From the NCBI GenBank assembly GCA_023473595.1, contig JAMCYV010000022.1:1-48748 (forward strand): a DNA stretch of 48,748 nt, in the 5' to 3' direction. The stretch is from Patescibacteria group bacterium (GTDB lineage Bacteria; Patescibacteriota; CPR2; UBA1875; JAMCYV01). This document shows positions 7,700-29,169 of the stretch, in pieces. Both the position numbers and the translations under genes were made by a program. Position 1 is the first letter of the stretch. Every line of letters starts with the position of its first letter. The notes under the pieces are model-generated. The model saw only the letters and a program-made list of their open reading frames with translations, did not search any database and was not told where the DNA came from.

Positions 7700-8094
7700 A
7701 TCACGAGTTTTTAGACCATCCGTCAGACTTAAAAATAAAAGCGGTTGGAAAAAGTAAAGAAGAGGTTTTTCAGAGCTTAGCCGAAGCCGTAGCTGAATAT
7801 CTTTTACAAGAGAAACCGAGTGCAGAAGAAGAAAAGTCGTTTGATATTGAGCTAAAAGCAAACGATCTTCTTGGCCTTTTGATCCAGTATTTAAACGAAA
7901 TTCTTTTCCTAACCGAGACTGAAGGCGCTATTTTTGCGAAAGTAAGATTTGAAGAATTAGAGGATGATTATCTTAAGGCAAAGGCTTATAGTAGCGGGCA
8001 AAGACCGAAAGAGCAGATAAAATCGGCGACATATGAGTCGGAAATTAAAAGGATAAGTAAAGGTTTTCAAGCAGTGGTATTGTTTGATATTTAA
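7696..8094 (+). CDS. Archease (RtcB activator)
   Basis: FLDHPSDLKI, IKSATY, C-terminal LFDI; directly upstream of rtcB. Confidence 0.9.
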   Translation: MNHEFLDHPSDLKIKAVGKSKEEVFQSLAEAVAEYLLQEKPSAEEEKSFDIELKANDLLGLLIQYLNEILFLTETEGAIFAKVRFEELEDDYLKAKAYSSGQRPKEQIKSATYESEIKRISKGFQAVVLFDI

Positions 8095-8096
8095 TT

Positions 8097-8327
8097 CAGT
8101 AGCACAGTAGACAGTAGCCCTCCTTCGCCAAGGCTACGGACGGGCAGGCATGTAGCAAGGTTTCGTTGCTATCCATTCGGCCCTTCCTTGTGTCATTCCC
8201 GCGTAGGCGGGAATCCAGAAAGCAAAAGCTGGATCCCCGGGTCAAGCCCGAGGATGACAATTTAGATTATTCTAACCATATCATGGATGACAAATGGCCA
8301 ATGGCAAATAACTAATGACGAATGGCA
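8097..8327. repeat. Composite intergenic repeat cluster
   Basis: CAGTAG(C/A) short tandem units; element A CCCTCCTTCGCCAAGGCTACGGACGGGCAGG (8118-8148); TGTCATTCCCGCGTAGGCGGGAATCC...GGATCCCCGGGTCAAGCCCGAGGATGACA (8191-8259); AATGGCA-type heptamers 8286-8327. Confidence 0.85.
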
Positions 8328-9746: not shown

Positions 9747-9767
9747 CTTTTGGCTTAGAATAAACAT

Positions 9768-10235
9768 ATGAAACTAGGTACTAATGTTTATGTCAGAAAA
9801 GACGGCAAGACTTTGATGCTTTTTAGAAATAAAAAGCAAAATGATTTTCATCAAGGGAAATGGGTCCCAATAGGGGGTAAATTGGAAAACCATGAAAGCC
9901 CAGAGGAATGTGCCATTCGTGAGCTTAAAGAAGAAACCGGCTTAATTGCAAAAAATGTTAAATTTAAAGGAATTTTAACTTTTCCGGCTGATATAGAAAG
10001 TATTGATGGCGGTGAATGGATGCTTTTTGTTTTTGTTATAAACGATTTTTCTGGTAGGCTGATTAACACTTATGAGGGGGAACTCAAATGGATCGAAGAA
10101 TCGAAGCTTAAAGAGATTAATATGTGGCCTGGCGATCAGTTGAGTCTCAATTGGCTAGAGCAGCCAAAGTTTTTCTCTGCTAAGTTTATATATAGAAATG
10201 GTGAGTTCAAAGAACACACCGTTAATTTTTATTAG
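9768..10235 (+). CDS. 8-oxo-dGTP diphosphatase-like Nudix (MutX/MTH1 type)
   Basis: Intact Nudix box GGKLENHESPEECAIRELKEETGL; EGELKW; MWPGD. Confidence 0.85.
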   Translation: MKLGTNVYVRKDGKTLMLFRNKKQNDFHQGKWVPIGGKLENHESPEECAIRELKEETGLIAKNVKFKGILTFPADIESIDGGEWMLFVFVINDFSGRLINTYEGELKWIEESKLKEINMWPGDQLSLNWLEQPKFFSAKFIYRNGEFKEHTVNFY

Positions 10236-10238
10236 CCT

Positions 10239-11111
10239 ATGACTTGGTATTTATTAGCTTTGCTTTCGGCAGTTTTTATCGCTCTAACCGAATTTACAGA
10301 GAAAAAAGCGCTAACCAAAGAGCATGCTTCCGCTTTTCTCACAGTTTCTTCGTTTATCATCCTTATTTTTTCTTTGCCGCTTTTACTAACTGGCAAGATC
10401 CAAATAGTCACAGGTCCAATGCTTGGCCTGATATTTTTTAAATCGGTTCTAGCTGTTCTCGCCATCACTTTTACCACTATGGCCTTAAGACATATGGAAG
10501 TCTCGGAATTTTCGCCGCTTCTTAACTTAAGCCCTCTTTTTCTTCTTGTTATCTCTGTCTTTTTTCTTGGCGAAAAAGTCTCTAATTTTCAATCCCTAGG
10601 CATCGTCCTAATTGTTCTAGGAACTTATATTCTAGAATTCAAGCAAACTTTAAAATCACCCTTTGAAAGGATAAAAAGCGATAAATATATTCATTTGCTT
10701 CTTCTGGGGGCTGTTTTTTTAAGCCTTACTGCGGCTTTGGACAGGGTTATTCTTTTGAAATCTATAAATGTTGAGACATTTTATCTTTATCAAAGAGTTT
10801 TTATAACAGCACTCTTCGTTATTATCACTTTTTATTTCTATGAAGGGATGAAAGACATCAAAGAAGTTACCAAGCGTTCCTTTATGATTGTTCTCATCCC
10901 TAGCGTTTTATATGCGGTCGGAGATTATATTTATTTTATGGCAGTGGCAATGCCGGCTGCTCTTATCGCTCTTATTATTCCTATCAAGCGTACTTCAAAC
11001 CTAATTACGACGATGATGGGAGGGGAATTATTAAAAGAAGAAAGGGTTTTACAAAAAAGCTTGGCTTGTATCATTATGCTTTTAGGAGTTGTACTTATCA
11101 TTTTAAAATAA
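10239..11111 (+). CDS. EamA/DMT family transporter
   Basis: About 10 TM in two repeats; FLGEK and LLKEE helix ends. Confidence 0.85.
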   Translation: MTWYLLALLSAVFIALTEFTEKKALTKEHASAFLTVSSFIILIFSLPLLLTGKIQIVTGPMLGLIFFKSVLAVLAITFTTMALRHMEVSEFSPLLNLSPLFLLVISVFFLGEKVSNFQSLGIVLIVLGTYILEFKQTLKSPFERIKSDKYIHLLLLGAVFLSLTAALDRVILLKSINVETFYLYQRVFITALFVIITFYFYEGMKDIKEVTKRSFMIVLIPSVLYAVGDYIYFMAVAMPAALIALIIPIKRTSNLITTMMGGELLKEERVLQKSLACIIMLLGVVLIILK

Positions 11112-11165
11112 ATTACTGAAGAATTTGCTAAATCATTTTTTATTTCAAAAGTTTAAAATCTAACC

Positions 11166-11735
11166 ATGCGACAGCCAATGAGACTTTTTATCGGGGTCAG
11201 TCTTCCGAATCATGTGACTGATGTTATCGACAGCTTCAAAGAAGCATATGTTCAGTATGATTTGGACAAACTTGAGGCTAGATGGGTCCCTAAAAACAAT
11301 TTCCATATTACTTTGCTTTTTCTAGGAGAAGCTGATTCTTATAAACTAGATCAGGTTCTAGAAGTGGTGGAAAAAGTCGCTAAAAATTTAAATTCGTTTC
11401 AAGCGAAAACAGGCGGCTTAACTATTCTTTCTAATTTTAAATATCCCAAAGTTCTGGCTCTAGAAATCAAAGAGAATAAAAATCTTTCGGCTTTGCAAAA
11501 GGCGCTTTTAGATGAATTTAATAAAAAAGATTACGTTTTTGAGAATAAAAAGTTTGTTCCCCATATCACTTTGGGCCGATTTAAAAGAAGAGTCAGAGAT
11601 TTAAAAAGTACCTTAAAAGAACTAAGAGAACCGCCAGAGCAAGAATTTGAAATTTCAAGTTTTGAGGTCCTAGAAACGAGCTACAGCAACGGTGAGATTA
11701 AATATTTGCTTCATAAAAGGATAAAATTTGGGTAA
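11166..11735 (+). CDS. thpR: RNA 2',3'-cyclic phosphodiesterase (2H family)
   Basis: MRLFIG start; two HITL motifs (FHITLLFLGE, PHITLGR). Confidence 0.9.
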   Translation: MRQPMRLFIGVSLPNHVTDVIDSFKEAYVQYDLDKLEARWVPKNNFHITLLFLGEADSYKLDQVLEVVEKVAKNLNSFQAKTGGLTILSNFKYPKVLALEIKENKNLSALQKALLDEFNKKDYVFENKKFVPHITLGRFKRRVRDLKSTLKELREPPEQEFEISSFEVLETSYSNGEIKYLLHKRIKFG

Positions 11736-11796: not shown

Positions 11797-13428
11797 ATGA
11801 ACTTTAATAAGAGATTAATTATTTTACTTTCAATACTCTTGGTTCTTGTTTTTGGTACTTTAGGCGGCATTTATTTTTATTGGACTAGATACTCGAGGCC
11901 TATTGCTAGAAATGTTTTAACCGAGAAAGAACACTTGAGAGTTGCTGCTCTTATGGAACCAATTGGTATTTATCCAGAACCTTTCGGTGATGTAAGCGAA
12001 ATTATTTCCCATGCGGTAAATTCTCAAGTTTTTGAGCCTTTGGTAACTTTAGACAACGATTTTAAGCTTAAGCCAGTGCTAGCAGAAAGTTGGGATAATC
12101 CCGATAATCTAACATGGCGCATCTATCTAAAAAAGAATGTTAAGTTTCATAACGGCGATTCATTTACTGCTGAAGATGTAAAAGCAACTTTAGAAGCATC
12201 AAAAAAAGATAAATGGGTTCAGGCCCAAGACCTTGATCAAGTATCTGAGATTAAGGTAGTAAATCCTTATACTATTGAGCTAAAGACTAAAAGTCCTTAT
12301 CCGATTTTGATGAACAAATTGAGCTTTTTCTTTATCTTGCCCAAAAGTGTAATAGCGGAAGGCAAAGTGACCGAGAAACATATCGGCACAGGAGCTTTCA
12401 AATTTGTAAAGTATGAACAAGGCAAAGAACTTGTCTTTGAAAGAAATGACAACTGGTGGAGCGAAAAACCTAAAGTCAAAAAAGTTACCTATAAATACCT
12501 TTCAGATCCTGAAGAAGCGGCTAAAATGATAAAGGATGGGGAAGCAGACGCAATGGAATCTGTAAACCCAGCTTTAGCTAAAGAAGCAAATAAAGATAGT
12601 AAGCTCAAAAATAGCATTAAATTTCTTGATTACGGCGTAAAGTACATAGGCTTAAGTGTTTATCAGGAGAAATCCCCTTATATCGAAACCGAGAAAAATC
12701 CTTTTAAGGATAAAAGGGTCAGAGAAGCAATCGCTCTAGGAATTAACTTGGATGAAATGATGCAGGAAGCAATCCTAGGCGATGGAGAGACTGCATCCCA
12801 AATGGTTCCTAAGGACATTTTTGGTTATAATCCGAGTATTCAGCAAACAGCTTATAACCCTGAAAGAGCTAAATCACTTCTTAAAGAAGCTGGGTATCCA
12901 AACGGATTTACGGTAACTATGGATATTCCAGTGCCAAGAGAAGCAGACGGGCAAGCTTTGGTAAAACAACTAAAAAATATAGGGATTACCTTAAAGCTAG
13001 CCTTAATGGATGACCCAGCAACTGGAATGAAAAAGTTAAGCCAGAAAGATACCGGTATGTACTTTATGGGCTTTGGTTGTGATAGCGGAGATGGTTCTGA
13101 ACTTTTTGAACAGCTTGCTTATTCTAAGAGCGACTATAATTATACAGGCTATAACAATAGCGAGGTAGATAGACTAACTGATCTAGCAAAAACAACAGTT
13201 GACCAATCGAAACGAAGAGAATACCTGCAAGAAGCAATGACAGCACTTAAGGAAGATTATGTCTATATTCCGCTCTATGCAAACAAATTCACCTATTTTG
13301 CTTCTCTAAAGATCAACTTGGTTTATGATAAGTCGGGTGAAGTTAAAGCAACTTTAGTGTCAGGAGTTGAGACCGTTTACGAAAAACAAAGCTACAAGCA
13401 GTTCATAGTAAGCCTTTTCTCAAGTTAA
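11797..13428 (+). CDS. Family 5 (OppA/DppA-like) solute-binding protein with TM anchor
   Basis: LAESW, LKKNVKFHNGDSFTAEDV, GTGAFKF, DKRVREAI, AKSLLKEAGY; N-terminal TM without lipobox. Confidence 0.92.
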   Translation: MNFNKRLIILLSILLVLVFGTLGGIYFYWTRYSRPIARNVLTEKEHLRVAALMEPIGIYPEPFGDVSEIISHAVNSQVFEPLVTLDNDFKLKPVLAESWDNPDNLTWRIYLKKNVKFHNGDSFTAEDVKATLEASKKDKWVQAQDLDQVSEIKVVNPYTIELKTKSPYPILMNKLSFFFILPKSVIAEGKVTEKHIGTGAFKFVKYEQGKELVFERNDNWWSEKPKVKKVTYKYLSDPEEAAKMIKDGEADAMESVNPALAKEANKDSKLKNSIKFLDYGVKYIGLSVYQEKSPYIETEKNPFKDKRVREAIALGINLDEMMQEAILGDGETASQMVPKDIFGYNPSIQQTAYNPERAKSLLKEAGYPNGFTVTMDIPVPREADGQALVKQLKNIGITLKLALMDDPATGMKKLSQKDTGMYFMGFGCDSGDGSELFEQLAYSKSDYNYTGYNNSEVDRLTDLAKTTVDQSKRREYLQEAMTALKEDYVYIPLYANKFTYFASLKINLVYDKSGEVKATLVSGVETVYEKQSYKQFIVSLFSS

Positions 13429-13431
13429 AAA

Positions 13432-14781
13432 ATGGAAAATTCGGGGGTATTTTCAAGGATTAGAAACTTAACCAAAAATTCTCTTGTTTATGCAATAGCG
13501 TTAGTCTTTCTAATCTCTGGCTTTATAGGCTGGTTTGTTGTAAACTCGAGCTCCGATAGGGCTATTGCGAGAACAAATGAGGAAATAAAAGCATATACCG
13601 ACCTTTCAACCAAAACTATCGTAGATGCATATACTCTTTATTATTCTTCTGGCTTTTATAAATTTAAGGAAATCATTAATGAGACACTTAAGATTTCGCC
13701 TAACATCTCTAAATTTCAACTTGTAAATCCGGAAGGAAAAGTTCTCTTTGATTCCTCTAATGTGGGTAACACCACCGAAGTCAGTCTAGATGAGACCTTA
13801 GCAGACAGTACGAGAAAAATTAGTACTACCTATGTCTATGATAAAAAAGACTCATCCAGGATAACCCAGGTTATCTCCCCTTATTTAGAGGATTGGAGCC
13901 GTCACCCATACTCTGTAGTCTATTATGTAAACTACGAAAAGGTAGACAGCGATATCTATAGCTTTAAGCTTCAGATTATCCTTTTTGTATTCTTACTCTC
14001 TCTTTCTACTGCCTTAACCCTAATTTCGACTATTACTGCCAAGGATCTAGCTCTTAAAAAAGAGGAGAAACAAGAGTTAGAGGAGCTAAACAAAAGGAAA
14101 GACCAATTCTTGATGATTGCCGCACATAACCTGAGGACACCTCTAACCAGCATTAAGGGATTTTTATCCCTTATCACGGAAAAGAACAAAAAATTTGTTC
14201 AAGAAGAGAAAGAGTATTTCGAGCCGATCGTCGAAGGAACCGACCGTTTATTTTACTTAACAGAAACAATTATTGAAGTAAATTCGATTCTCGCTGAAAA
14301 AGTCACTTTTAATTTTAAGGCAGCCGAAATAGTAGATATTATAGAAAAAGAAGTTAGAAGTTGTCTTAATCTCGCTACCGAAAAAGGGATTATTATAAAG
14401 TTTGAGAAACCAAAGAAAAAACTGCCTTTAGTAAGTGTTGATATTGGAAAGATCAAAGAAGTTTTCCAAAACTTGATTAGCAATGCTATTAAATTTAATA
14501 AACCAAACGGCTGGGTAAAGATTAATATCCAAAGAAATGAAAATGATATAACTATTACAGTCTCTGATAACGGAATCGGTTTTAAAAAGGAAGAACAGGA
14601 ACACATCTTTGAAATGTTCCATCGTGGCACTGATATTTTGACCTACAATTACGAAGGAGTTGGTCTAGGCTTATTTTTGTCTAAGCTTATAATAGATAAG
14701 CATAAAGGAAATATCCTAGTAGAAAGCAAGGAAGGTAAAGGATCAAAGTTCTCTATTGTTTTGCCAATAATGTCCAGTTAA
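13432..14781 (+). CDS. Sensor histidine kinase (2 TM, extracytoplasmic sensor domain)
   Basis: AHNLRTPL H-box, NLISNAIKF, DNGIG, GLGLF, GKGSKF. Confidence 0.93.
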   Translation: MENSGVFSRIRNLTKNSLVYAIALVFLISGFIGWFVVNSSSDRAIARTNEEIKAYTDLSTKTIVDAYTLYYSSGFYKFKEIINETLKISPNISKFQLVNPEGKVLFDSSNVGNTTEVSLDETLADSTRKISTTYVYDKKDSSRITQVISPYLEDWSRHPYSVVYYVNYEKVDSDIYSFKLQIILFVFLLSLSTALTLISTITAKDLALKKEEKQELEELNKRKDQFLMIAAHNLRTPLTSIKGFLSLITEKNKKFVQEEKEYFEPIVEGTDRLFYLTETIIEVNSILAEKVTFNFKAAEIVDIIEKEVRSCLNLATEKGIIIKFEKPKKKLPLVSVDIGKIKEVFQNLISNAIKFNKPNGWVKINIQRNENDITITVSDNGIGFKKEEQEHIFEMFHRGTDILTYNYEGVGLGLFLSKLIIDKHKGNILVESKEGKGSKFSIVLPIMSS

Positions 14782-14814: not shown

Positions 14815-15309
14815 ATGAATGAGTTAGATGGAAGTTATTCTCCAAATCAGGACAAAAATCCCGAACAAAAGGAACAAGAAATCAAAGAAGGTTTCAGGGA
14901 ATTTCTAGAATTTCAAACTGAAACGTTAGGTGAACAAAGAGAAACTTTAGAAGAAATTAAAAAAAGAGGACTCGATTTGGGGGATATCGTAACTTCCCCG
15001 ATTCAAATGCTTTCGGATGCTGGCTTTGAATTCGAGGGCGATATTTTCTCTGATTTAGAACCTGTTTATCAAAAAGCGGTTCTTAATGTTTTAAAGGAAG
15101 ATTTAGGATTTGATGAGGCTAATTTGGTTCAAGAGGAAATTCAGAATGAAGGGCAAGAGGATGAAGTTAAAAGTGAATTTTTTATGACCAATAAAGAGGG
15201 TTTTTTTGTAAAAAGAGAAACCGATAAAATAGGCATCAACATTTACTTTGTCGAAGAAAGGTTTATCTCTGAAATAGTTGCAGAATGGCCTATTTCAGAA
15301 GAGGAATAA
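14815..15309 (+). CDS. Hypothetical acidic protein
   Basis: 164-aa Glu-rich ORF; TAATG overlap with the next gene. Confidence 0.6.
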   Translation: MNELDGSYSPNQDKNPEQKEQEIKEGFREFLEFQTETLGEQRETLEEIKKRGLDLGDIVTSPIQMLSDAGFEFEGDIFSDLEPVYQKAVLNVLKEDLGFDEANLVQEEIQNEGQEDEVKSEFFMTNKEGFFVKRETDKIGINIYFVEERFISEIVAEWPISEEE

Positions 15310-16376
15310 TGTTAAGAAAGATTTCTTTAATCCCATTTCTTATTCTCTTTACCCTGCTTTTACTAGCTATTCTTCTTGCCTGGGGTCTTAAGTTTACGGT
15401 TTTAAACCCTAATTTTATTAAAAATGAACTAAAGAGCCAGGATGTTTATAACAAGGTTTATACAAATCTGCCTTTAATTGCCGAACAAATGATGCCTAAA
15501 GAGGGAGAAAGAGAAAACCCTGAAGAGCCGCTTCCTACCGAAGGATTATTTACGTCCCAAAGCACGATAACATTTGCCCAAAATATTATTTCTAAATCTG
15601 ATTTAGAGCGAAAGATCGAAAGCGCAATTGACTCTTTAATACCATGGTTTTTAGGGTCAGATCAAAAACTCGCTCTGGATATCTCTCTTAAGGATATCAA
15701 AATTAATTTGATAAAAGAATTGATGAAAAATCCTAAAATCAAGGAATCGGCTGAGGCAATGCCAGTCTGCGCTGATCTGGCTTATTTTATTTCACTTAAG
15801 GGAAATATTACTTGCCGGCCGCCGGAATTTGATCTTAATAATCTTGATAGTCCCCAAAATGAAGTCGTTCTAGCAGAGGTTTCAAAAATGATAAAAAATA
15901 TTCCCGATACTTTAAACGCTCAAACTCTGAATGAAACTTCCAATTTCTCTGCAGGCTGGCAGAAGGCGCAGGATATTAGATCAAAGGTTGTCTTGGGAGT
16001 AAGGCTTTTTTACCTAGGAACGGCTGTCCTTATTCTTTTAATTTTTACCGTCGCTTGGCTATGGGCAGGAAACTTAAATAAAACACCATTAGTTTTTGGA
16101 ATCTTTTTAGCGATTTATTCAAGCTTATATTTAATAATTATAAATATCGGCTGGATAATCGGATTTCCCCAAATCTTGAGATTATATGACCAAAAAATTA
16201 ACCAGCCACCGTTTGTCAAAAATGAACTAATATTACCGCTAATAAAAGACGTTTTAGGGAAAATTAGATACACCCTAAATCTTGAGTTAGCTCTTGTTAT
16301 TTTATTTTCAACTGTTTTAATTAGCATTTCTCTTATAGTTAAAAAACGTTCGGTAAAAATAGAAACATCAACCTAA
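15309..16376 (+). CDS. Hypothetical membrane protein
   Basis: N-terminal TM, extracellular domain with a Cys pair, three C-terminal TM; start taken at ATG 15309. Confidence 0.7.
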   Translation: MLRKISLIPFLILFTLLLLAILLAWGLKFTVLNPNFIKNELKSQDVYNKVYTNLPLIAEQMMPKEGERENPEEPLPTEGLFTSQSTITFAQNIISKSDLERKIESAIDSLIPWFLGSDQKLALDISLKDIKINLIKELMKNPKIKESAEAMPVCADLAYFISLKGNITCRPPEFDLNNLDSPQNEVVLAEVSKMIKNIPDTLNAQTLNETSNFSAGWQKAQDIRSKVVLGVRLFYLGTAVLILLIFTVAWLWAGNLNKTPLVFGIFLAIYSSLYLIIINIGWIIGFPQILRLYDQKINQPPFVKNELILPLIKDVLGKIRYTLNLELALVILFSTVLISISLIVKKRSVKIETST

Positions 16377-16444: not shown

Positions 16445-17473
16445 ATGTCTTCAACACAAAAAAGCCTTACCGAAGTTTTTGATGAGGCTATACAACTAGT
16501 AGAACCGGTAATAGATGAACTCCTGGTAAAGGACGTTGACCCTCGTTTCCAGGAACTCCAACGGCATCATATGAAAGCTGGAGGGAAGAGAATCAGGCCT
16601 GTTATTAGCTTGGTAAGTTCGAGGAATCTAGGGGGTGAAGACAGCGAAGTAATCTATCCTGCAGCTGCACTGGAAATTTTGCATAATTATACTCTGATTG
16701 TTGACGATATGATCGACAATAGCCCTATGAGAAGAAATTCACCGACTGTTTGGAAACAGTTCGGGAGGTCTATCGCCGAGTGTGTTGCTTGGGACTATGC
16801 TTCTTCTGCATACCAAGCATTAGGCAGGTCTAGCCAGGCTCAAATCTTATTAGATAAAATCAGTAAAACCCTTAAGATTATTGGTGACGGTGAAATATTA
16901 GACATTCTTTTCGAGAGGTTCGGGAGAGAAGACGACCCCTATGTGGTAGAAAACCGTTTTAAAGACCTGACAATTAAGGATTATTTTGAAATGGCTGGCA
17001 AAAAAACAGCATCTCTTTTCGCAACCTGTTCAGAAATCGGAGGAATCTGTGCTAGGGGAAGCGAAAAAGAGCTGGCTTGTTTAAAAAACTATGGTTACAA
17101 CCTTGGCATTGCCTTTCAAATCCAGGACGATTTTCTAGATACCTTTGGGGATGAAAGTAAGTTCGGCAAAAAGATCGGCAAGGATATAGAAGAGCGCAAA
17201 GCCAGCAATATAGTCGTTCTATTAGCACTAGAGGAATTAAATGATAACGATAAAAAAGATTTAAATAATATTTTCATTAAAAAAGAGATTAAAGATTTAG
17301 ATGTTAAAAGAGCGATTGAACTGATCCAGAAAACCAGTGCCAGAGAACAAGCTCTATCTTTGGCTCAAGAATACAATAAAAAAGCAAAGGTATACTTAAA
17401 GGATTTGCCTCAAAATGAATGGAATAATGTTTTAGAAGAGATCACTGATTTTGTGATAAAGAGGGAGAAATAA
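16445..17473 (+). CDS. Polyprenyl diphosphate synthase, archaeal-type GGPP synthase signature
   Basis: GGKRIRP, HNYTLIVDDMID...RR (short FARM, Tyr at -5), KKTA, FQIQDDFLD. Confidence 0.92.
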   Translation: MSSTQKSLTEVFDEAIQLVEPVIDELLVKDVDPRFQELQRHHMKAGGKRIRPVISLVSSRNLGGEDSEVIYPAAALEILHNYTLIVDDMIDNSPMRRNSPTVWKQFGRSIAECVAWDYASSAYQALGRSSQAQILLDKISKTLKIIGDGEILDILFERFGREDDPYVVENRFKDLTIKDYFEMAGKKTASLFATCSEIGGICARGSEKELACLKNYGYNLGIAFQIQDDFLDTFGDESKFGKKIGKDIEERKASNIVVLLALEELNDNDKKDLNNIFIKKEIKDLDVKRAIELIQKTSAREQALSLAQEYNKKAKVYLKDLPQNEWNNVLEEITDFVIKREK

Positions 17474-18003
17474 TGGAACAAGTCGTCCTCGTCGACAAAG
17501 ATGACAAAGAGATAGGATTAGAAGAAAAAGAAAAAGCGCATTTAGGAGAAGGCAAATTGCACAGGGCCTTTTCGATTTTTATATTTAACCCCAAAAAAGA
17601 ACTTCTAATAACAAAAAGAAGCAGTCAAAAGATGCTTTGGCCTCTCTTTTGGGACAGCGCTTGTGCCAGCCATCCTTTGAAAGGCGAATCTCAAGAAAAA
17701 GCGGGGGAACGAAGACTGAAAGAAGAGCTTGGGTTTACTTGCAAGCTAAAAGAGGTTGATAGATTTGAATATCACGCACTTTATGAAGATATAGGGTCTG
17801 AATACGAAATTTGTTCAGTTTTAATCGGATTTTACGACAGAAATATTAATATAAATCCTGATGAGGTTGCCGAGTATAAATGGGTTGATTTAAAATGGAT
17901 AAACCAAGAAATTTCAAGTAACAAGGATAAATATACTCCTTGGTTGATAATAGCCATTGAAAGATTAAAGAAGAAAAATTATGAGTTTGTTGAAAAAAAT
18001 TAA
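17473..18003 (+). CDS. idi: Isopentenyl-diphosphate delta-isomerase type 1
   Basis: LHRAFS, SHP, RRLKEELG, SEYEIC, NPDEV, TPWL. Confidence 0.9.
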   Translation: MEQVVLVDKDDKEIGLEEKEKAHLGEGKLHRAFSIFIFNPKKELLITKRSSQKMLWPLFWDSACASHPLKGESQEKAGERRLKEELGFTCKLKEVDRFEYHALYEDIGSEYEICSVLIGFYDRNININPDEVAEYKWVDLKWINQEISSNKDKYTPWLIIAIERLKKKNYEFVEKN

Positions 18004-19873
18004 AAGACCAAAAGACTTAAAAAGTTTAAAAATAGAAGAGCTTAGTAAACTTGCGGAAGAAATTCGAGAAGAAATTCTAACTACCGTATCGAAAAGAGGA
18101 GGGCATCTGGCTTCAAATTTAGGAGCCGTCGAGCTTACCCTTGGCCTGCATTTAGCTCTTGATCTTCCTAAAGATAAAATTGTCTGGGATGTCGGGCATC
18201 AGTGTTATACGCATAAACTCTTAACCGGCCGCCAAGAAGAATTTTCAACACTTAGGAGCTACAAAGGGCTATGCGGTTTCCCAAGAAGGGAGGAAAGCAA
18301 GTATGACACTGCAAATACCGGCCATGCCAGTACATCCGTAAGCACTGCTCTGGGGCTTGCAAGGGCAAGAGACTTGAAAGGAGAAGACTTTACCATAGTC
18401 GCTGTTATAGGTGACGGTTCACTTACCGGTGGACTTGCTTATGAAGGATTAAATCAAGCTGGCCAGTCAAATACAAATATTATTATCGTTCTTAAAACAT
18501 TATTCATGTCGATTGGCAAGAATGTTGGCGCTTTAGCTGATTACTTGAATCGTTTGAGAAGCCACTCAAAAGTGAAAAAAGTAAGAAAAGAAGCCGAAGA
18601 GAGATTGTCTAAGATACCAACGCTTGGAGATTTCCTGGTTAACTTAGGGAAATCTGTTAATAAATCAATAAGAAAAATTGTTCTCCCAGGAAGGCTTTTT
18701 GAAGAATTAGGCTTTAGGTATTATGGCCCGATTGACGGCCACGATCCTTTGAGAATCGTGGAAGCAATTAGTTTCGCTCAAGATATGGGCGGCCCGGTCC
18801 TTATTCATGCTTTTACTGTAAAAGGCAAAGGCTATAAGCCGGCAGAAGACGATCCGACTTACTTTCACGGCATCTCCCCTTTTAATTTAACGCCTGAAAA
18901 AGTGGAAACAGTCGAAAAAAACGGCAAAAAAAGGCCCTCTTATACTGAAGTTTTTAGTGATATGATGCTGGAATTAAGCGAAAAAAATAAGGATATAGTG
19001 GCAATCACAGCTGCAATGGCGGATGGTACCGGGCTTAGCGATTTTGCTAAGAAATATCCGAACCGTTTCTTTGATGTAGGGATAGCTGAAGAACATGCGG
19101 TAACTTTTGCTGCCGGGTTAGCTTTAAACGGCTTAAAACCTGTGGTAGCCATTTATTCTACTTTCTTACAAAGGGCATATGATCAAATTATCCATGATGT
19201 TGCTTTAACCGGTCTTCCAGTTATATTTGTTTTAGACAGAGCTGGTCTGGTTGGCGAAGACGGACCAACCCATCATGGGCTTTTTGACCTTACATATTTA
19301 AAAAGCATTCCTGGAATGACTGTAATGGCGCCTTCGAACGAGCAGGAACTTAGGGATATGTTAGAAACGGCGATTACAATTAATGGTCCGGTAGCAATTC
19401 GCTTTCCAAGGGGAAAAGCTCCAGGCGTTCCAATTAAAAAAGCCAGTAAACTAAAGGTGCCGGAAGCGAAAATGCTGAAAAAGGGTAATGATGTACTTGT
19501 GTTGGCGGTTGGCCGAATGGTCGAAAACGCTCTTGAAATAGAATCTCTTTTGAAAGCCAAAAACATTAGTACTACTGTCGTCGACGTGAGATTTACGAAA
19601 CCTTTTGATGAAGAGCTTTTCTTAAAACTAATTCCGAAACATAAATTGGTAGTTACTTTGGAGGAGAATGGGATCGGAGGATTTGCAGACTCAATCTCTA
19701 AATTTATGCTTGAAAATAAGTTAGTTACTCCAACAATTTTTTGCCATATTCCCGATCGATTTATTACTCATGGAGCAGTAAAAGATTTAATGAAAGATGC
19801 CGGGATAGACCCTGAATCAGTAGCAGATAAGGTAATAAAAAAGTTAAAAGAAAATTTAGTTGCTATTAAGTAG
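17981..19873 (+). CDS. dxs: 1-deoxy-D-xylulose-5-phosphate synthase (NDN motif altered)
   Basis: GGHLASNLG, WDVGHQ, GHASTS, GDGSLTGG, GIAEEHAV, DRAG, GPTHHG. Confidence 0.92.
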   Translation: MSLLKKIKRPKDLKSLKIEELSKLAEEIREEILTTVSKRGGHLASNLGAVELTLGLHLALDLPKDKIVWDVGHQCYTHKLLTGRQEEFSTLRSYKGLCGFPRREESKYDTANTGHASTSVSTALGLARARDLKGEDFTIVAVIGDGSLTGGLAYEGLNQAGQSNTNIIIVLKTLFMSIGKNVGALADYLNRLRSHSKVKKVRKEAEERLSKIPTLGDFLVNLGKSVNKSIRKIVLPGRLFEELGFRYYGPIDGHDPLRIVEAISFAQDMGGPVLIHAFTVKGKGYKPAEDDPTYFHGISPFNLTPEKVETVEKNGKKRPSYTEVFSDMMLELSEKNKDIVAITAAMADGTGLSDFAKKYPNRFFDVGIAEEHAVTFAAGLALNGLKPVVAIYSTFLQRAYDQIIHDVALTGLPVIFVLDRAGLVGEDGPTHHGLFDLTYLKSIPGMTVMAPSNEQELRDMLETAITINGPVAIRFPRGKAPGVPIKKASKLKVPEAKMLKKGNDVLVLAVGRMVENALEIESLLKAKNISTTVVDVRFTKPFDEELFLKLIPKHKLVVTLEENGIGGFADSISKFMLENKLVTPTIFCHIPDRFITHGAVKDLMKDAGIDPESVADKVIKKLKENLVAIK

Positions 19874-19950
19874 TATTATCAAGCTAAATAGCTAGTATAG
19901 GCAAGAACCTTCAGCTTTTTTTAATAAAGCACTAATGCTACAATAAAAGT

Positions 19951-20835
19951 ATGAACAAAAGCGAGAGCTTATCAATAAATCGCTTATTTCAAGCTGTCTG
20001 GAATGAGTTTGTCTATGGCGGGCACCTAGTTTCTATCAGTAATTTTTCGATTGTCATCTGTACAATTGTCCTTTTACAAATCTCCTTCGATTTAGACGTC
20101 TTTAAAATTATTAGTCTTTCTTATTTAATTACTTTTTTTGTTTATAACTATAACCATATTTTTGAACTTGATCGAGATGCTATCTCAAATCCCGAAAGAA
20201 CTAAGCACTTATCGAATGCTCTGGAAATTTATAGAACCTTAATAATAATAGCCTTTTTACTTTTTATATATATAAGTGGAGTTACCAGCCTTAAAGCTTT
20301 AATTTATTTACTATTTATTGCGATAGTGGGTGTTTTTTATCCAAAGCATCTTACAAAAAAAATAACTGCTTTTAAAAATATTTATACAGCTTTTTTTTGG
20401 AGTACTATTGTTTTCTTGCCATTACTATTTTTAGATTTAGAATTAGGCCCCAATGTCTTTCTTTTCTTTGTTTTTGTTTTAATACGATCCATATTAAATG
20501 CTGTCTATTACGATATAAAAGATATTGACAGTGATAAACGAGAAGGACTAAAAACTCTCCCAGTTATTATTGGTAAAGAGGCAACAGTGAACTTTCTACA
20601 CATTCTTAACATCTTATCTTTCTGCCCCCTAATTATTGGTTTTTATTTTGGAGTTATTCCTCTCATTTTCTTAGTTGGATTAGTCCCAGTATTATTCTAC
20701 GCTCTTTTCTATCTCACGAGGGTAAATAAAGCAAGTGACTCTATTTTCAGAAACTTATCTTATGTAATGGTAGATGGAGAATATATTTTTTGGGCCCTTA
20801 GCTTGTTATCTATTAAATATCTATTTGGCGTATGA
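19951..20835 (+). CDS. UbiA family prenyltransferase
   Basis: Multi-TM; YNYNHIFELDRD...NPER and YDIKDIDSDKREGLKTLP acidic motifs. Confidence 0.88.
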   Translation: MNKSESLSINRLFQAVWNEFVYGGHLVSISNFSIVICTIVLLQISFDLDVFKIISLSYLITFFVYNYNHIFELDRDAISNPERTKHLSNALEIYRTLIIIAFLLFIYISGVTSLKALIYLLFIAIVGVFYPKHLTKKITAFKNIYTAFFWSTIVFLPLLFLDLELGPNVFLFFVFVLIRSILNAVYYDIKDIDSDKREGLKTLPVIIGKEATVNFLHILNILSFCPLIIGFYFGVIPLIFLVGLVPVLFYALFYLTRVNKASDSIFRNLSYVMVDGEYIFWALSLLSIKYLFGV

Positions 20836-23156
20836 GTTTAGATACTTTACAACTTTTTATATTAATTTTAATTAATATCCTAAGCGTTATTCTAGGGGCT
20901 TGGGTATTAAAAAGCTCAAGGAAAGATAAGCAAAATCAATGGTTTGTTGCGATGGATTTATTAATTATCCTCTGGACAAACTTTTCTTATATTGGATCTA
21001 TCGCTCGGAGTTATGGTATTTCCTTATTATTTTATAGGTTAAATGATTTTGTGGTCTCCCTATTCCTGTTTGTTTTCTATTATTTCTTTGTGAGTAAGTT
21101 TTTAAAAATAAAAAAAAATAGGTTATTGAATAGTATTATTCTCATCGGATCAACCTTCTTTGCTTTATTATCGGTTTTTTCTGATAAAATAATTGCCTCA
21201 GTAAAAATCTCTGACTGGGGTTCAGAAATTATTTTCGGTAAACTTAATGATTTTTTGAATGCCTTTGCAGTCTTTGTGGCAGCAGTGATTTTCTATTTTG
21301 GTATTGCAAGATATTCTAAACTACCAAATAAGGAAAAGCTTAGAGTAAGATATTTCTTTTTAGGTATAGCTTCTTTTATCCTAGCAAATGTGGTTTTTAA
21401 TGTTATATTTCCTGCTCTCTTCAATACCACTCGATATCAGCATTTTGGTGATTTCTCGTTTATCTTCTTTCTTGCCTTTACGGCCTATGCCATTGTGAAG
21501 CACAGGCTTATGGATATTCGTATGGTTGTGGCGAGATCGCTCGCTTATGCTATGCTTCTTGTCACTATTGCAGGAGGTTATGCAACGACTTTAGTTGGGG
21601 TTCAAAACTATTTCTTTGCTCAAAGAGAATTTTCGTGGGAACAAACTATATTTCAAATAATCTTGGCTGTAATTTTTGCATTTACATTTCAGCCACTCCG
21701 TCGTTTTTTCACTAAAATTACCGATAAAATCTTTTTCAAAAACGATTATAACTTCGAAGTGCTGCTTAAGAAATTGACTGATAATGCATTTTCCACTCTT
21801 ATCCTGATAGAACTTTTGTATAAGACCATTGACACTTTAATGAAGGAAATGAAGGTTTCGAGAGGATTTTTTGTTCTTTTGGATGAAGACGGCCAGATCC
21901 ACACTTCCCAGGCTATCGGTTATGCTAAGACCCCTGAATTCGAGCCAAGGGATATCAAGGGCTTTGCAAAGCACGAAATTATTGTTTTTGATGATCTTGA
22001 AGAAAGTTCTCATTTTAAGACTATGTTTAGAAGATATGACGCCAGCATTGCTATAGGGCTCTTGGATGACAATGATAAGCCTGTCGGAGCCCTTTTCCTT
22101 GGTGAAAAAAATTCCGGCGATATGTTCAATACTAAGGATATTCGGCTTTTTGAGATACTAGCACCGGAGATGGTTATCGCTATCCAAAGGGCAAAAGAGC
22201 ATGAAAAAGTACAGAATTTCAATGTTTACTTGCAAGCTGAAGTTAATAGGAAAACGAAAGAATTGCAGCAGGCAAACGAGCACTTAAGAGAGCTTGATAA
22301 AGCGAAAGATGAATTTATTTCTATGGCTTCTCATCAGCTAAGAACGCCTTTAACGGCTATTAAGGGCTATCTTTCGATGCTTCTGGAAGGCGACGCCGGC
22401 GAGATAAAAATGGCCCAATATGACTTTATTAATGAAGCTTTTGACGGCGCTAATAGGATGGTTGCTTTAATAAACGACCTTCTCAATGTTTCTAGGATGG
22501 ATACCGGCCGTTTCTTCCTAGAGCCTACCAAAGTCGACATGGAGAAACTCGTTGATGAAGAGATCAAACAGCTAAAGAATACGGCTGCCGAGAAAAAGCT
22601 CTATCTCAAATTTGAGAAGAAGAAGGCCAAAATTCCGCCGATTACTGCCGACGAGACAAAGATCAGGCAAGTTGTGATGAACTTTATCGACAATGCTATT
22701 TACTATACTCTTTCTGGCGGCATAACCGTGATCCTGGATGCTGATAAAAATAATTTAATCTATAAAGTAGCGGATACTGGAATCGGTGTTCCTGAAGGGG
22801 AGAGAAAAAATCTCTTCTCTAAGTTTTACAGAGCGGATAATGCCAGGAAGACGCGGCCGGATGGCACCGGGCTCGGAATTTATCTGGCCAAAAAAGTCAT
22901 CGAAGACCATGGCGGTGAGGTAATCTTTGAATCCAAGGAAGGCAAAGGTTCTACATTTGGCTTTAAGTTCCCCCTTAAAGCCAAGATTAAGAAAGAGCTG
23001 ACTATCCCGCCTCCCGATTTAGCAGCCAAAGCTAAGGCGGAGGCCGAGCAAGCAACAGCGCCGAGTGGAACTCCGAATGCGAGTGATAAACAAGAAAGCG
23101 CAGAATCATCTCAAAATCAAGAGGCCGAAGGGCAAATTAAAAGCGGAATATTCTAA
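20832..23156 (+). CDS. Membrane sensor histidine kinase (HisKA_7TM-like N-terminus, GAF-like, HisKA, HATPase)
   Basis: About 9 TM, AYAIVKHRLMDI, FQPLR, GEKNSGDMF; SHQLRTPL, NFIDNAIYY, DTGIG, GTGLG. Confidence 0.93.
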   Translation: MSLDTLQLFILILINILSVILGAWVLKSSRKDKQNQWFVAMDLLIILWTNFSYIGSIARSYGISLLFYRLNDFVVSLFLFVFYYFFVSKFLKIKKNRLLNSIILIGSTFFALLSVFSDKIIASVKISDWGSEIIFGKLNDFLNAFAVFVAAVIFYFGIARYSKLPNKEKLRVRYFFLGIASFILANVVFNVIFPALFNTTRYQHFGDFSFIFFLAFTAYAIVKHRLMDIRMVVARSLAYAMLLVTIAGGYATTLVGVQNYFFAQREFSWEQTIFQIILAVIFAFTFQPLRRFFTKITDKIFFKNDYNFEVLLKKLTDNAFSTLILIELLYKTIDTLMKEMKVSRGFFVLLDEDGQIHTSQAIGYAKTPEFEPRDIKGFAKHEIIVFDDLEESSHFKTMFRRYDASIAIGLLDDNDKPVGALFLGEKNSGDMFNTKDIRLFEILAPEMVIAIQRAKEHEKVQNFNVYLQAEVNRKTKELQQANEHLRELDKAKDEFISMASHQLRTPLTAIKGYLSMLLEGDAGEIKMAQYDFINEAFDGANRMVALINDLLNVSRMDTGRFFLEPTKVDMEKLVDEEIKQLKNTAAEKKLYLKFEKKKAKIPPITADETKIRQVVMNFIDNAIYYTLSGGITVILDADKNNLIYKVADTGIGVPEGERKNLFSKFYRADNARKTRPDGTGLGIYLAKKVIEDHGGEVIFESKEGKGSTFGFKFPLKAKIKKELTIPPPDLAAKAKAEAEQATAPSGTPNASDKQESAESSQNQEAEGQIKSGIF

Positions 23157-23208: not shown

Positions 23209-23766
23209 ATGGCAAAATTATATAATGAATCGGAGGGAGGATACAGACCTGAAAGGTTTAAAGATACAACGTTAAGACCGGGTGAATTTAAAGATGCGGT
23301 TGATTTTTTTCCAGGAGGAAAACCAGAAAAACCGACAACTAAAACCCAATTTGAGACAGGTGGTGAAAACTTACTTGATCGGGTTTATACAACCGTTCAT
23401 GAATTTTTTACTGTTAAAGGAAGTCCGGATAGAAGGAAGGAAATATACCGCAGGAGAACTCTTGCTGCTTTTTTAGCTGGAGCCGCTATATTGGCAGGAA
23501 CTCAATATTCTTCAAGGGGAGAAAAGCCGGTTGGAGATGGAAACCCTAATCCGGAAGCGCCATCTACTCCAGTCAAACAGCCTGAGAGAGGAACGATTGT
23601 TGACTCCCAGGGGCAGGCTAAAGAAATTGAATTTGACACTACAGCAGCTGAAGAGCAGAAAAAGACAATGATAGAAGCCCAAAAGATTACGCCGGATTTT
23701 GCAGAAGATTTAGACCGCGAACCATTACCCGATGGCCGATATAAAGTGGAGGGAAATCAAAAATGA
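23209..23766 (+). CDS. Hypothetical protein with central hydrophobic segment
   Basis: GGAG SD; RRRTLAAFLAGAAILAG; ATGA overlap with the next gene. Confidence 0.65.
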   Translation: MAKLYNESEGGYRPERFKDTTLRPGEFKDAVDFFPGGKPEKPTTKTQFETGGENLLDRVYTTVHEFFTVKGSPDRRKEIYRRRTLAAFLAGAAILAGTQYSSRGEKPVGDGNPNPEAPSTPVKQPERGTIVDSQGQAKEIEFDTTAAEEQKKTMIEAQKITPDFAEDLDREPLPDGRYKVEGNQK

Positions 23767-23993
23767 CTACAGAAGAAAAAGCTGAAAGAATAGCCGATCT
23801 TCTTCTTAGGGTAGAGATGCCGGAAGAAGAGATGAAAAACTGGCTTCAAGTTATTCCTAAGATGAATAAAGACCAGCTTAATGAGTTTATCGACGTTTTT
23901 GAAACGGAGCTAAGGGAACTTGAACTCTTGAGGGCTGATACAAGAGATAAATTGAAAGGTCAAATCCTAGAACTGATAAAGAATAATGCTTAG
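23763..23993 (+). CDS. Small helical hypothetical protein
   Basis: 76 aa, coupled to the upstream gene, followed by a terminator. Confidence 0.65.
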   Translation: MTTEEKAERIADLLLRVEMPEEEMKNWLQVIPKMNKDQLNEFIDVFETELRELELLRADTRDKLKGQILELIKNNA

Positions 23994-28111: not shown

Positions 28112-28639
28112 TTATTTGCTACTTTTTACTGTTTTAGGTACTGGTTCAAATTGAACGTCTTTTTCACCCTTTAGGGCTCTTTCAGTCATCCAAAGTTCCT
28201 CTAAGATTCCATCAAAGAGTTTGTAGTTTTTAGCTTCTTCAAAAGTAACCCATTTGTAATCCTGGGTATCTTCATCTAGTTTTATTTCATCGCCAGCCCA
28301 ATCAGCGACAAAAGAAAGAACGATCGAAGCATATTCTTTGTCAGTATCCCAAGTAAGAGAAGTAAGGTACCAGATATTTTTGATGTCTAAATTAGTCTCT
28401 TCTTTTATTTCTCTTTTTAAGCTTTCTTCCAAGATGTTATACCAATAGTCACCGACATCTTTGGGGAAGGGGAGGAAATCCTCGGTCGTAAAATGCCCGC
28501 CGGGAACATGCCACATTCCGGGAAAAGTCTCCTCATGCTCGGCTCTCTGAGTTATAAGATAGCGAGGTGTTATCCCTTCTTTATAAGGTTCTTTTAAAAT
28601 TATAGCGGTTGAAAGGATCTTAAAATATTTTTCTTGCAT
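28112..28639 (-). CDS. Nudix hydrolase, paralog 1
   Basis: FPGMWHVPGG...DYWYNILEESLKREIKEETNL. Confidence 0.85.
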   Translation of the reverse strand: MQEKYFKILSTAIILKEPYKEGITPRYLITQRAEHEETFPGMWHVPGGHFTTEDFLPFPKDVGDYWYNILEESLKREIKEETNLDIKNIWYLTSLTWDTDKEYASIVLSFVADWAGDEIKLDEDTQDYKWVTFEEAKNYKLFDGILEELWMTERALKGEKDVQFEPVPKTVKSSK

Positions 28640-28659
28640 TTCTCCTCCTATCTAATTTT

Positions 28660-29169
28660 TTATACAGCTCTTTGCCACTCAACATCTTTTTCTCCAACCA
28701 ATTTTCTTTCTGCTAAGTAAATCTCATCTAGTATGCCATCGATTAAATCATATTTTTTTGCTTCCTCATAAGTAACCCAGGCATGGTCGGTCATATCTTC
28801 ATCTAATTTAATTTTCCCGTCTGCATATTCAGCAACGAAAGATAGGGTAAGTGAACCGTGCCCTTCTTCTGTTAATCTGGCAAGTGAAGTGAGATAGAAA
28901 ATATTTTTGATTTCAATTCCTGCTTCTTCCCTAACCTCCCTCCTTAATCCTTTCTCCAAAACATTATACCAGTAATCCTTTGTTTCCTTTTTAGTAAATG
29001 TGTAATCGGATTGATGGAGTTTGCCTCCCGGTACCGTCCACATTCCTGGAAAAGTTCTTTCCTTATTAGATCTCTTTAAAATCAAGTATTTCGATGGGAC
29101 TTCTTTTTGATAAGGTTTTTTCAATACAAAAGCAGAGGCGAGAATATTAAACATTTTATTCTTGCTCAT
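28660..29169 (-). CDS. Nudix hydrolase, paralog 2
   Basis: FPGMWTVPGG...DYWYNVLEKGLRREVREEAGI; ATGA overlap with the thrS stop. Confidence 0.85.
   Translation of the reverse strand: MSKNKMFNILASAFVLKKPYQKEVPSKYLILKRSNKERTFPGMWTVPGGKLHQSDYTFTKKETKDYWYNVLEKGLRREVREEAGIEIKNIFYLTSLARLTEEGHGSLTLSFVAEYADGKIKLDEDMTDHAWVTYEEAKKYDLIDGILDEIYLAERKLVGEKDVEWQRAV

Follow-up and report, generated by a model that had tools for sequence, protein, structure and literature searches.

Does an intramembrane prenyltransferase encoded directly ahead of a membrane-bound sensor kinase make the molecule that the kinase detects? The question arises from a block of five genes, all reading in the plus direction, at positions 16445–23156 of a 48,748-nucleotide (nt) stretch of DNA from a Patescibacteria group bacterium (contig JAMCYV010000022.1 of GenBank assembly GCA_023473595.1), referred to in its full length as the window. 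The window makes up contig C7 of an assembly that totals 775 kb in 33 contigs and is estimated to be 84.6% complete. Its block encodes a geranylgeranyl diphosphate (GGPP)-synthase-like enzyme, two further isoprenoid enzymes, a UbiA-superfamily prenyltransferase (hereafter UbiA) and a large sensor histidine kinase (Table 1). An earlier sequence-only reading proposed that UbiA forms a lipophilic prenylated compound that is sensed in the membrane by the neighbouring kinase. The recurrence of the pair and the coupling between enzyme and sensor, both described here, support this proposal; the product, its binding and a role between cells are parts that we infer. We place at about 0.55 the probability that the pair constitutes a portable module of an isoprenoid-product synthase and its cognate intramembrane receptor kinase.

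An even sample of 401 genomes of the window's phylum (0.5–2.1 Mb in size) was searched for UbiA and for the sensor domain of the kinase. The UbiA clade was present in 8 of the 401. The seven UbiA genomes besides the window's contain eight UbiA loci, and a polytopic kinase lies directly downstream in seven of these, one of them truncated where its contig ends; in the eighth, the sole bacterial exception, UbiA is a second copy within its genome and stands beside a prenyl synthase. A pattern scan of species-representative genomes, built from a nine-sequence UbiA alignment, returned 58 loci. Eleven were bacterial by title, and all 11 carry the kinase downstream on the same strand, immediately so in eight; in the other three (L034, L051 and L062) a gene for an S-adenosylmethionine (SAM) methyltransferase of 294–296 residues intervenes. 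Thus, with the window included, a HisKA_7TM kinase is located 3' of UbiA on the same strand in 19 of 20 bacterial loci. In 16 of these 19 pairs the two genes adjoin, spaced by −68 to +18 nt, and three have the one methyltransferase gene between. Translational coupling through ATGA and similar overlaps is found in most of the bacterial loci, and the ATGA shared by ubiA and the kinase gene at 20832–20835 of the window can be read directly in the sequence. The related bacterial loci bear titles such as Candidatus Saccharimonadales, Saccharibacteria and Paceibacterota.

The remaining 47 scan loci are archaeal and belong to Methanobacteriaceae, Methanobacteriota and Methanocellaceae. Searching with an iterated sensor profile identified a homologous kinase within two open reading frames (ORFs) of UbiA in 33 of them; the kinase gene is divergent in 26 and lies upstream in the same orientation in 7. 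Five Methanobacteriaceae kinases scanned with Pfam all have the architecture HisKA_7TM-PAS-HisKA_2-HATPase_c. Because the archaeal core is of the PAS-HisKA_2 type and the bacterial core of the GAF-HisKA type, the element common to both domains of life is the seven-transmembrane (7TM) sensor and not the core. On metagenome contigs, some of which probably duplicate genome records, a kinase occurs within two ORFs in 53 of 79 UbiA loci, and in 28 of the 32 loci with flanks of at least 1 kb on both sides. The sequence-only reading had named an adjacency unique to this one genome as the outcome that would speak against it; what was found is a pair that recurs in bacteria, archaea and metagenomes.

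Several of these loci hold additional genes. The best matches of the inserted methyltransferase, all far below threshold, are cyclopropane-fatty-acid synthases, geranyl-diphosphate C-methyltransferase and sarcosine/dimethylglycine N-methyltransferase. The metagenome locus L178 likewise has a 296-residue ORF between UbiA and the kinase, the likeness to L034, L051 and L062 being one of size and place. On the chromosome of a Methanocella sp. (L073, 1268–8061) the pair is duplicated in tandem, in the order membrane PAS kinase, UbiA, CruF-like carotenoid hydratase homologue, membrane PAS kinase and UbiA; neither Pfam nor the sensor profile recognises HisKA_7TM at the N-termini of these kinases. The inserted methyltransferase and the Methanocella CruF-like gene are weak hints of further chemistry. 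In a Saccharibacteria locus (L029, 5983–6765) a heliorhodopsin gene (PF18761, E 9e-94) in the opposite orientation comes directly after the UbiA–kinase pair, whose UbiA has a stand-alone receiver encoded directly upstream. A UPF0047 (PF01894) gene adjoins the prenyl synthase/UbiA genes in L012, L013 and L067, and L013 also has a NUDIX gene.

The plainest account of the locus would be that the enzyme is an ordinary digeranylgeranylglyceryl phosphate (DGGGP) synthase or a quinone/haem prenyltransferase whose pathway lies elsewhere, next to the kinase through incidental operon packing. UbiA, the only member of its superfamily in the window genome, reached no NCBIfam cut-off. Its best row was PRK13591 'prenyltransferase' (45 bits against a cut-off of 238). 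Models for DGGGP synthase (DGGGPS), MenA, UbiA and chlorophyll synthase all scored 19–31 bits, including the three DGGGPS models PRK12882 (31 vs 296), PRK12872.1-1 (24 vs 278) and PRK12883 (23 vs 353), the MenA model (27.8 vs 316) and the UbiA model (19.4 vs 364). Relatives 31–44% identical were found in a collection of 5.8 billion proteins and nearly all lack a name; the named ones are a Methanobacterium 'UbiA family prenyltransferase', a Thermoplasmata hypothetical protein and entries that carry the JGI label '4-hydroxybenzoate polyprenyltransferase'. In an alignment of 32 members, which also revealed clade-specific N- and C-terminal motifs, the second Asp-rich motif DxxDxxxD (D188, D191 and D195 in window UbiA numbering) is invariant and D76 and R83 are nearly so. 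The first motif has the variant form [N/D]xxx[E/D]xxxD (N66, E70 and D76, plus R83), which differs from the canonical first motif of the UbiA superfamily.

The AlphaFold2 (AF2) model of UbiA, with a mean predicted local distance difference test (pLDDT) score of 93.8, has the all-helical polytopic UbiA fold. Foldseek matched it to 7bpu, 6m31, 4od4 and 4tq3 at probability 1.00 with template modelling (TM) scores of 0.60–0.74. It resembles the archaeal DGGGP synthase (6m31/7bpu; MjDGGGPS at E 3e-6) and ApUbiA (4od4/4od5; TM score 0.70–0.74) in fold, with E values of 3e-6 to 4e-5, and in the second Asp-rich motif, and differs from them in its 14–16% identity, the missed equivalog cut-offs and the variant first motif. 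A search of the PDB with the UbiA sequence profile gave chlorophyll synthase only (E 0.002). Judged by motifs and model, UbiA looks catalytically competent, and by sequence it belongs to an uncharacterised clade common to small-genome bacteria and methanogens. The structural neighbours and the JGI label would suit an ordinary enzyme, and partner genes may be missing from the assembly, which is 85% complete. The scores listed above stand against this, as does the lack of the partners: geranylgeranylglyceryl phosphate (GGGP) synthase (PcrB, PF01884) was not found in the 85%-complete window genome, and CDP-archaeol synthase (CarS, PF01864), UbiD and cytochrome bd were found neither there nor in six relatives. 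Missed cut-offs and missing ether-lipid and quinone partner genes together disfavour a plain DGGGP/quinone enzyme, which the sequence-only reading had named as an outcome contrary to its own, and incidental adjacency is excluded by the 19 of 20 bacterial and 33 of 47 archaeal loci. We regard this account as highly improbable. The gene of about 550 residues after UbiA in relatives had at first been taken for a GT-C glycosyltransferase, which would have made UbiA a polyprenyl-phosphate sugar enzyme; Pfam identified these genes as kinases.

The kinase of the window has about nine hydrophobic helices by hydropathy and in the AF2 model, and its largest outside loop is a β-hairpin of about 20 residues, in agreement with the earlier description of some nine transmembrane helices and no large extracellular domain. 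Its N-terminal domain gave no match to HisKA_7TM (PF16927) at E ≤ 0.001, only 20.6 bits to 7TMR-DISM_7TM (cut-off 29), and it aligns throughout with relatives that do match PF16927. Among UbiA-linked homologues, the PF16927 cut-off of 28.6 bits is passed by L011 (29.2), L012 (55.8) and L034 (35.4) and missed by L016, L017 and L018 (25–28). A hidden Markov model from seven UbiA-linked kinases, the window's included, finds the Pfam-positive archaeal kinases. The GAF assignment is similarly borderline, at 28.4 bits for PF13185 (just below its cut-off of 28.6) and 22.4 bits for PF01590 (at its cut-off). The AF2 model of the sensor domain (pLDDT 85) superposes on the transmembrane domains of class C G protein-coupled receptors (GPCRs) with Z 14–15.6 and root-mean-square deviations of 3.4–4.0 over 204–220 residues; the best superposition (Z 15.6, 3.4, 219 residues) is barely above the Z of about 13–14 that helical bundles give by arrangement alone, and so the model lends weak support to a ligand-binding bundle. 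Stand-alone receivers are encoded within two ORFs of the pair in L011, L019, L020 and L029 by Pfam and in L018 by homology to that of L011. An ORF of 123 residues in L068 resembles that of L018 in size and place. HisKA_7TM-like membrane proteins of 321–460 residues that have no kinase core are encoded in L087 (G041:C2, 9525–12258), L017 (5983–7365) and L034 (7746–8711); in G041 two of them stand in tandem beside a full kinase with FeeM-like and methyltransferase genes.

How closely the sensor follows the enzyme was examined in a tree of 109 sensor domains, of which 19 are UbiA-linked bacterial ones, 30 come from archaeal UbiA loci and 60 belong to further kinases of the phylum (IQ-TREE in quick mode, LG+C20). 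All 19 UbiA-linked bacterial sensors, the window's included, fall into a single clade of 20 rows (support in the Shimodaira–Hasegawa-like approximate likelihood ratio test, SH-aLRT, 95). They span at least six family codes (f1, f3, f44, f80, f95 and f132) and the titles Saccharimonadales, Saccharibacteria and Paceibacterota. Kinases without UbiA from the window's own order are placed in several other clades. Mapping the type of upstream enzyme onto the tree required 12 changes, whereas 300 shuffles averaged 30.1 and never fell below 25; when the isoprenoid group was left out, 11 changes stood against a shuffled mean of 16.8 and minimum of 13. In Mantel tests on 17 bacterial pairs, UbiA distances correlated with those of the 7TM domain (r 0.52, p 0.0005) and not with those of the kinase core (r 0.11, p 0.17), and sensor distances were uncorrelated with those of their own cores (r −0.04). 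As related sequences share labels, the clustering and Mantel figures overstate independence; their direction is nevertheless consistent. The UbiA and sensor trees also agree on the sub-clades window plus L019, L036 plus L038, and L034/L051/L062/L067. The comparison of trees proposed in the sequence-only reading therefore came out in favour of coupling, with one UbiA-linked sensor clade and a UbiA that tracks the sensor and not the core.

The twentieth member of the clade extends the association beyond UbiA. It is the sensor of a kinase in L082, from the same class as the window, whose operon runs prenyl synthase, idi, a 324-residue ORF and kinase. The wider locus (G317:C3, 6129–15178, minus strand) consists of a 390-residue and a 197-residue ORF, both of unknown kind, a first HisKA_7TM kinase, the prenyl synthase, idi, the 324-residue ORF and a second HisKA_7TM kinase; the sensor of the second kinase is the one inside the clade. 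The 324-residue ORF has DDxxD and NSE/DTE-like motifs, read by eye, and ESM Atlas places it with 'terpene synthase family' clusters (feature score 0.97) and its structure with a Methanobacteriota cluster (TM score 0.92) and a plant myrcene synthase cluster (0.73). It had no PDB sequence match and no NCBIfam match, and a diverged UbiA was ruled out (hhalign probability 0.2). Since UbiA and this class-I terpene-synthase-like ORF occur within one clade, the sensor clade is tied to isoprenoid-product enzymes of two families.

In the UbiA tree one branch with support 99 splits the archaeal from the bacterial sequences, and the closest relatives of the UbiA clade of the small-genome bacteria are those of Methanobacteriaceae/Methanocellaceae, and vice versa. 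The free sensor tree sets the archaeal sensors apart from every bacterial one; a tree constrained to unite the UbiA-linked sensors of both domains of life in a single clade was not rejected in the approximately unbiased (AU) test (p 0.126).

Tracking of the 7TM domain by UbiA would also be expected if the UbiA protein itself bound the membrane domain of the kinase and reported the prenyl diphosphate pool or the availability of an acceptor, so that the enzyme and not a free product were read. Translational coupling in most bacterial loci suits stoichiometric partners, and both proteins are polytopic. There is a precedent in UBIAD1 and HMG-CoA reductase (HMGCR), where a UbiA-family enzyme is reported to be tied to regulation through a polytopic partner with GGPP as the cue; that system differs from the window pair in being eukaryotic and in controlling degradation by protein–protein binding, with no kinase. 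The structure of that complex, 8djk, is among the fold matches of the window UbiA (12% identity, TM score 0.55). Yet the archaeal genes are uncoupled, being divergent or 120–200 nt apart, a methyltransferase gene separates UbiA from the kinase in three bacterial loci, a soluble terpene-synthase-like enzyme takes the place of UbiA within the same sensor clade, and other cassettes of the kinase family use soluble enzymes. No UbiA–kinase fusion was found, in that the search returned no longer protein homologous to UbiA at E ≤ 0.001, which is weak evidence. A complex prediction for the kinase membrane domain with UbiA scored 0.00 without controls and is given no weight either way. On balance, a directly bound enzyme seems improbable to us.

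UbiA is one rare version among many enzyme types that stand ahead of this kinase family. Homologues of the window sensor occur in 127 of the 401 genomes, including all 8 with UbiA, and we inspected 14 and then 40 further kinase loci, the 40 being taken in hit-list rank order and not picked by content. All of the 40 encode a full kinase. A Pfam-recognised enzyme is found among the two upstream ORFs in 31 and none in 9; the 80 upstream ORFs include no response regulator. ThiF-family enzymes are present in 14 of the 40 loci, three with a nitroreductase-like neighbour. The other upstream partners include FeeM/autoinducer-synthase-like GNATs, SAM methyltransferases, class I/II aminotransferases together with an AMP-forming ligase, Orn/Arg decarboxylases, pyruvoyl histidine decarboxylases and an AdoMet decarboxylase. 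Here too sensors group by enzyme: five aminotransferase-linked sensors form a clade (SH-aLRT 99), a seven-row clade (SH-aLRT 97) contains five ThiF-linked sensors, three of them with the nitroreductase-like neighbour, and two histidine-decarboxylase-linked sensors cluster (SH-aLRT 90). In a four-row clade (SH-aLRT 95) the two members scanned have ThiF plus a methyltransferase upstream and the other two match them in ORF size. The picture suggested by these sequences is of a kinase sensor domain that diversifies together with the variable small-molecule enzyme encoded ahead of it.

Such co-variation would fit equally well with feedback on a substrate or product, and sequence cannot separate this from signalling. 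UbiA would then make or remodel a structural isoprenoid membrane lipid, and the kinase would sense the state of the membrane or a substrate or product of the pathway in a homeostatic loop that involves no signal between cells. Small-genome bacteria of this kind are thought to scavenge and remodel lipids, and possible lipid enzymes are indeed encoded ahead of the kinase, namely CMAS/GPP-methyltransferase-like methyltransferases, FeeM-like N-acyl synthases, an acyltransferase and an LPG-synthase-like gene. Many partners, however, are not lipid enzymes, among them the pyruvoyl histidine decarboxylase, the Orn/Arg and AdoMet decarboxylases and ThiF with its nitroreductase-like protein, so that a single 'membrane state' cue fails to explain the family. 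A structural lipid would moreover be expected in most relatives, yet UbiA is confined to 8 of the 401 genomes. Homeostatic feedback is a serious possibility, and we consider it an unlikely one.

The prenyl donor for UbiA is likely supplied by the synthase that opens the block. Against NCBIfam it scores highest with IdsA (224 bits, cut-off 468) and GGPP synthase (209 bits, cut-off 500) and reaches neither cut-off. It carries the motif DDMID with Y at −5, and an aromatic residue at this position of a short first aspartate-rich motif predicts a C20 product. A homologous prenyl synthase is encoded within three ORFs of UbiA in 11 of the 20 bacterial loci. As noted from the window beforehand, the isoprenoid partners are missing, and this extends to the whole 85%-complete genome, in which dxr, ispG, ispH, GHMP kinase, HMG-CoA reductase and PcrB were not found; UppS is present on contig C13. 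The 15% of the genome absent from the assembly could contain the genes of a pathway to isopentenyl diphosphate (IPP). IspH, GHMP kinases and dxs are distributed patchily across five other genomes, of which four carry UbiA and one (G317) carries the terpene-synthase-like version.

In the module that we favour, the prenyl synthase together with idi would supply a C20, GGPP-type diphosphate donor. UbiA would transfer the prenyl chain to an acceptor inside the membrane and thereby generate a lipophilic isoprenoid-derived compound. The GPCR-like 7TM bundle of the kinase would bind this product laterally and detect the compound, or its level, in the bilayer. From there the signal would travel via GAF, HisKA and HATPase_c to a stand-alone receiver whose gene lies elsewhere. 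The compound might act between cells, as an autoinducer, or within the cell that makes it.

Several points weigh against this scheme. Product, acceptor and ligand are hypothetical, and the chemistry is predicted from sequence and models. The kinase family is 16 times commoner than UbiA in the phylum (127 vs 8 genomes) and close relatives of the window kinase work without UbiA; as the family mostly occurs without it, the kinase does not depend on UbiA. In 14 of the 47 archaeal loci no HisKA_7TM kinase stands within two ORFs of UbiA, and whole archaeal sub-clades are without one. The window kinase itself is below the Pfam threshold for PF16927, the margin of the GPCR-like superposition is small, and the sensor tree is a quick one with many long branches, in addition to the shared labels mentioned above. 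The window contig encodes no response regulator and the eight receivers of the genome are all off-contig. Finally, the search of the 85%-complete genome turned up no IPP-forming pathway that would account for the donor supply.

Table 1. Features of the isoprenoid–UbiA–kinase block and of the kinase domains (positions in the window).
Feature	Position	Strand	Basis
trans-Polyprenyl diphosphate synthase, GGPP-synthase-like	16445..17473	+	PF00348 E 8e-57
Type-1 isopentenyl-diphosphate isomerase (idi)	17473..18003	+	NF002995 155 bits (cut-off 127); TIGR02150 132 bits (cut-off 105.8)
1-Deoxy-D-xylulose-5-phosphate synthase (dxs)	17981..19873	+	TIGR00204 792 bits (cut-off 466)
TGCTACAAT, extended −10-like motif	19936..19944	+	7 nt 5' of ubiA ATG; motif match only
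UbiA-superfamily intramembrane prenyltransferase	19951..20835	+	PF01040 73.2 bits (cut-off 34.2), residues 46–262
Sensor histidine kinase, 774 residues, 7TM + 2 TM (transmembrane) + GAF + HisKA + HATPase_c	20832..23156	+	Pfam
Seven-helix sensor domain, kinase residues 1–233	20832..21530	+	alignment with HisKA_7TM relatives
GAF domain, kinase residues 325–452	21804..22187	+	PF13185 E 2e-6, PF01590 E 2e-4
HisKA (residues 491–559) + HATPase_c (607–716) core	22302..22979	+	PF00512 E 2e-17, PF02518 E 4e-26

The gene calls and coordinates of the sequence-only reading held throughout the block, as did its view of synthase, idi and dxs as one overlapping unit, in which synthase and idi share 1 nt and idi and dxs 23 nt. 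It had also assigned ubiA an extended −10 promoter of its own. The motif is present where it was placed, and it is missing from the list of a promoter scan, which returned 15 promoter-like sites against a shuffle mean of 19 and hence no excess. As the synthase gene directly precedes ubiA in the relatives L013, L014 and L019, an independent promoter for ubiA is at most putative.

Elsewhere in the window, an RNA repair and processing cluster at 6392–11735 encodes a member of the CCA-adding enzyme/poly(A) polymerase family, archease, RtcB ligase, a NUDIX protein, an EamA transporter and a LigT-like 2'-5' RNA ligase family protein. It is followed at 11797–14781 by a family-5 solute-binding protein and, after a gap of 3 nt, a second histidine kinase of 449 residues, which may together be another sensor pair. 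This kinase (13432–14781) resembles the second kinase of L019 in the catalytic core only. The two ORFs between it and the isoprenoid block (14815–16376) have no known family, no similarity to the ORFs upstream in L082 and no named ESM Atlas neighbour. The ORFs 3' of the UbiA-linked kinase (23209–23993) match no Pfam family, and no homologues of them follow the kinase at other loci. NUDIX genes are unusually many for a small window, with an NrtR-like regulator at 2155–2832, a single gene at 9768–10235 and two in tandem at 28112–29169, besides idi.

A synthase gene beside that of a membrane receptor kinase is a known kind of system. In Vibrio CqsA/CqsS and LuxM/LuxN, the synthase gene adjoins a polytopic kinase without a large outside domain, and the hydrophobic product is detected by membrane helices. 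The UbiA–kinase pair is likened to these by gene layout, a small-molecule synthase beside a polytopic kinase. The resemblance extends to the kinase family of the window's phylum, which also follows class I/II aminotransferases, the Pfam family of CqsA, and the FeeM/autoinducer-synthase-like GNATs. Unlike the Vibrio systems, the pair combines an intramembrane synthase of the UbiA fold with a HisKA_7TM sensor. Bacillus ComQ, which has a soluble prenyl-synthase-like fold, prenylates the ribosomal peptide ComX encoded between the genes, and the polytopic kinase ComP senses the modified peptide. Both layouts pair isoprenoid chemistry with a polytopic histidine kinase encoded beside the modifying enzyme, whereas the UbiA–kinase loci have no conserved small ORF and their enzyme is of the UbiA fold. 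Within this kind of system, the class of enzyme, the family of sensor, the conservation across domains and the swappable-cassette pattern are new. In the literature accessible in part, PMC8204110 included, we found no link of UbiA enzymes to HisKA_7TM kinases and no ligand for HisKA_7TM; the accessible text of PMC5847659 and PMC6944256, which name the domain, gives neither. Nothing relevant was found there on quorum sensing or oxazolone in Patescibacteria.

A bolder extension, which we hold to be rather improbable, is that HisKA_7TM is a family of GPCR-like intramembrane receptors whose ligand is set by a swappable synthase, the UbiA/terpene-synthase version making and sensing an isoprenoid autoinducer. 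If true, this would be the first isoprenoid small-molecule signal–receptor pair in prokaryotes. Because the sister UbiA clades of bacteria and archaea are each paired with HisKA_7TM and a common origin of the sensors was not rejected, the same class of molecule could be read across the boundary between bacteria and archaea in anoxic communities. Some Methanobacterium strains can be cultivated, which makes the archaeal version experimentally accessible in a way that the uncultured bacteria are not. For HisKA_7TM, a sensor domain widespread in bacteria and archaea, the pairing offers a concrete ligand candidate, and it gives an orphan UbiA clade a role. Taken with the other enzyme types ahead of this kinase family, the pairing suggests that exchangeable modules to make and sense small molecules are carried by ultra-small symbionts, bacteria commonly portrayed as having a poor metabolism.

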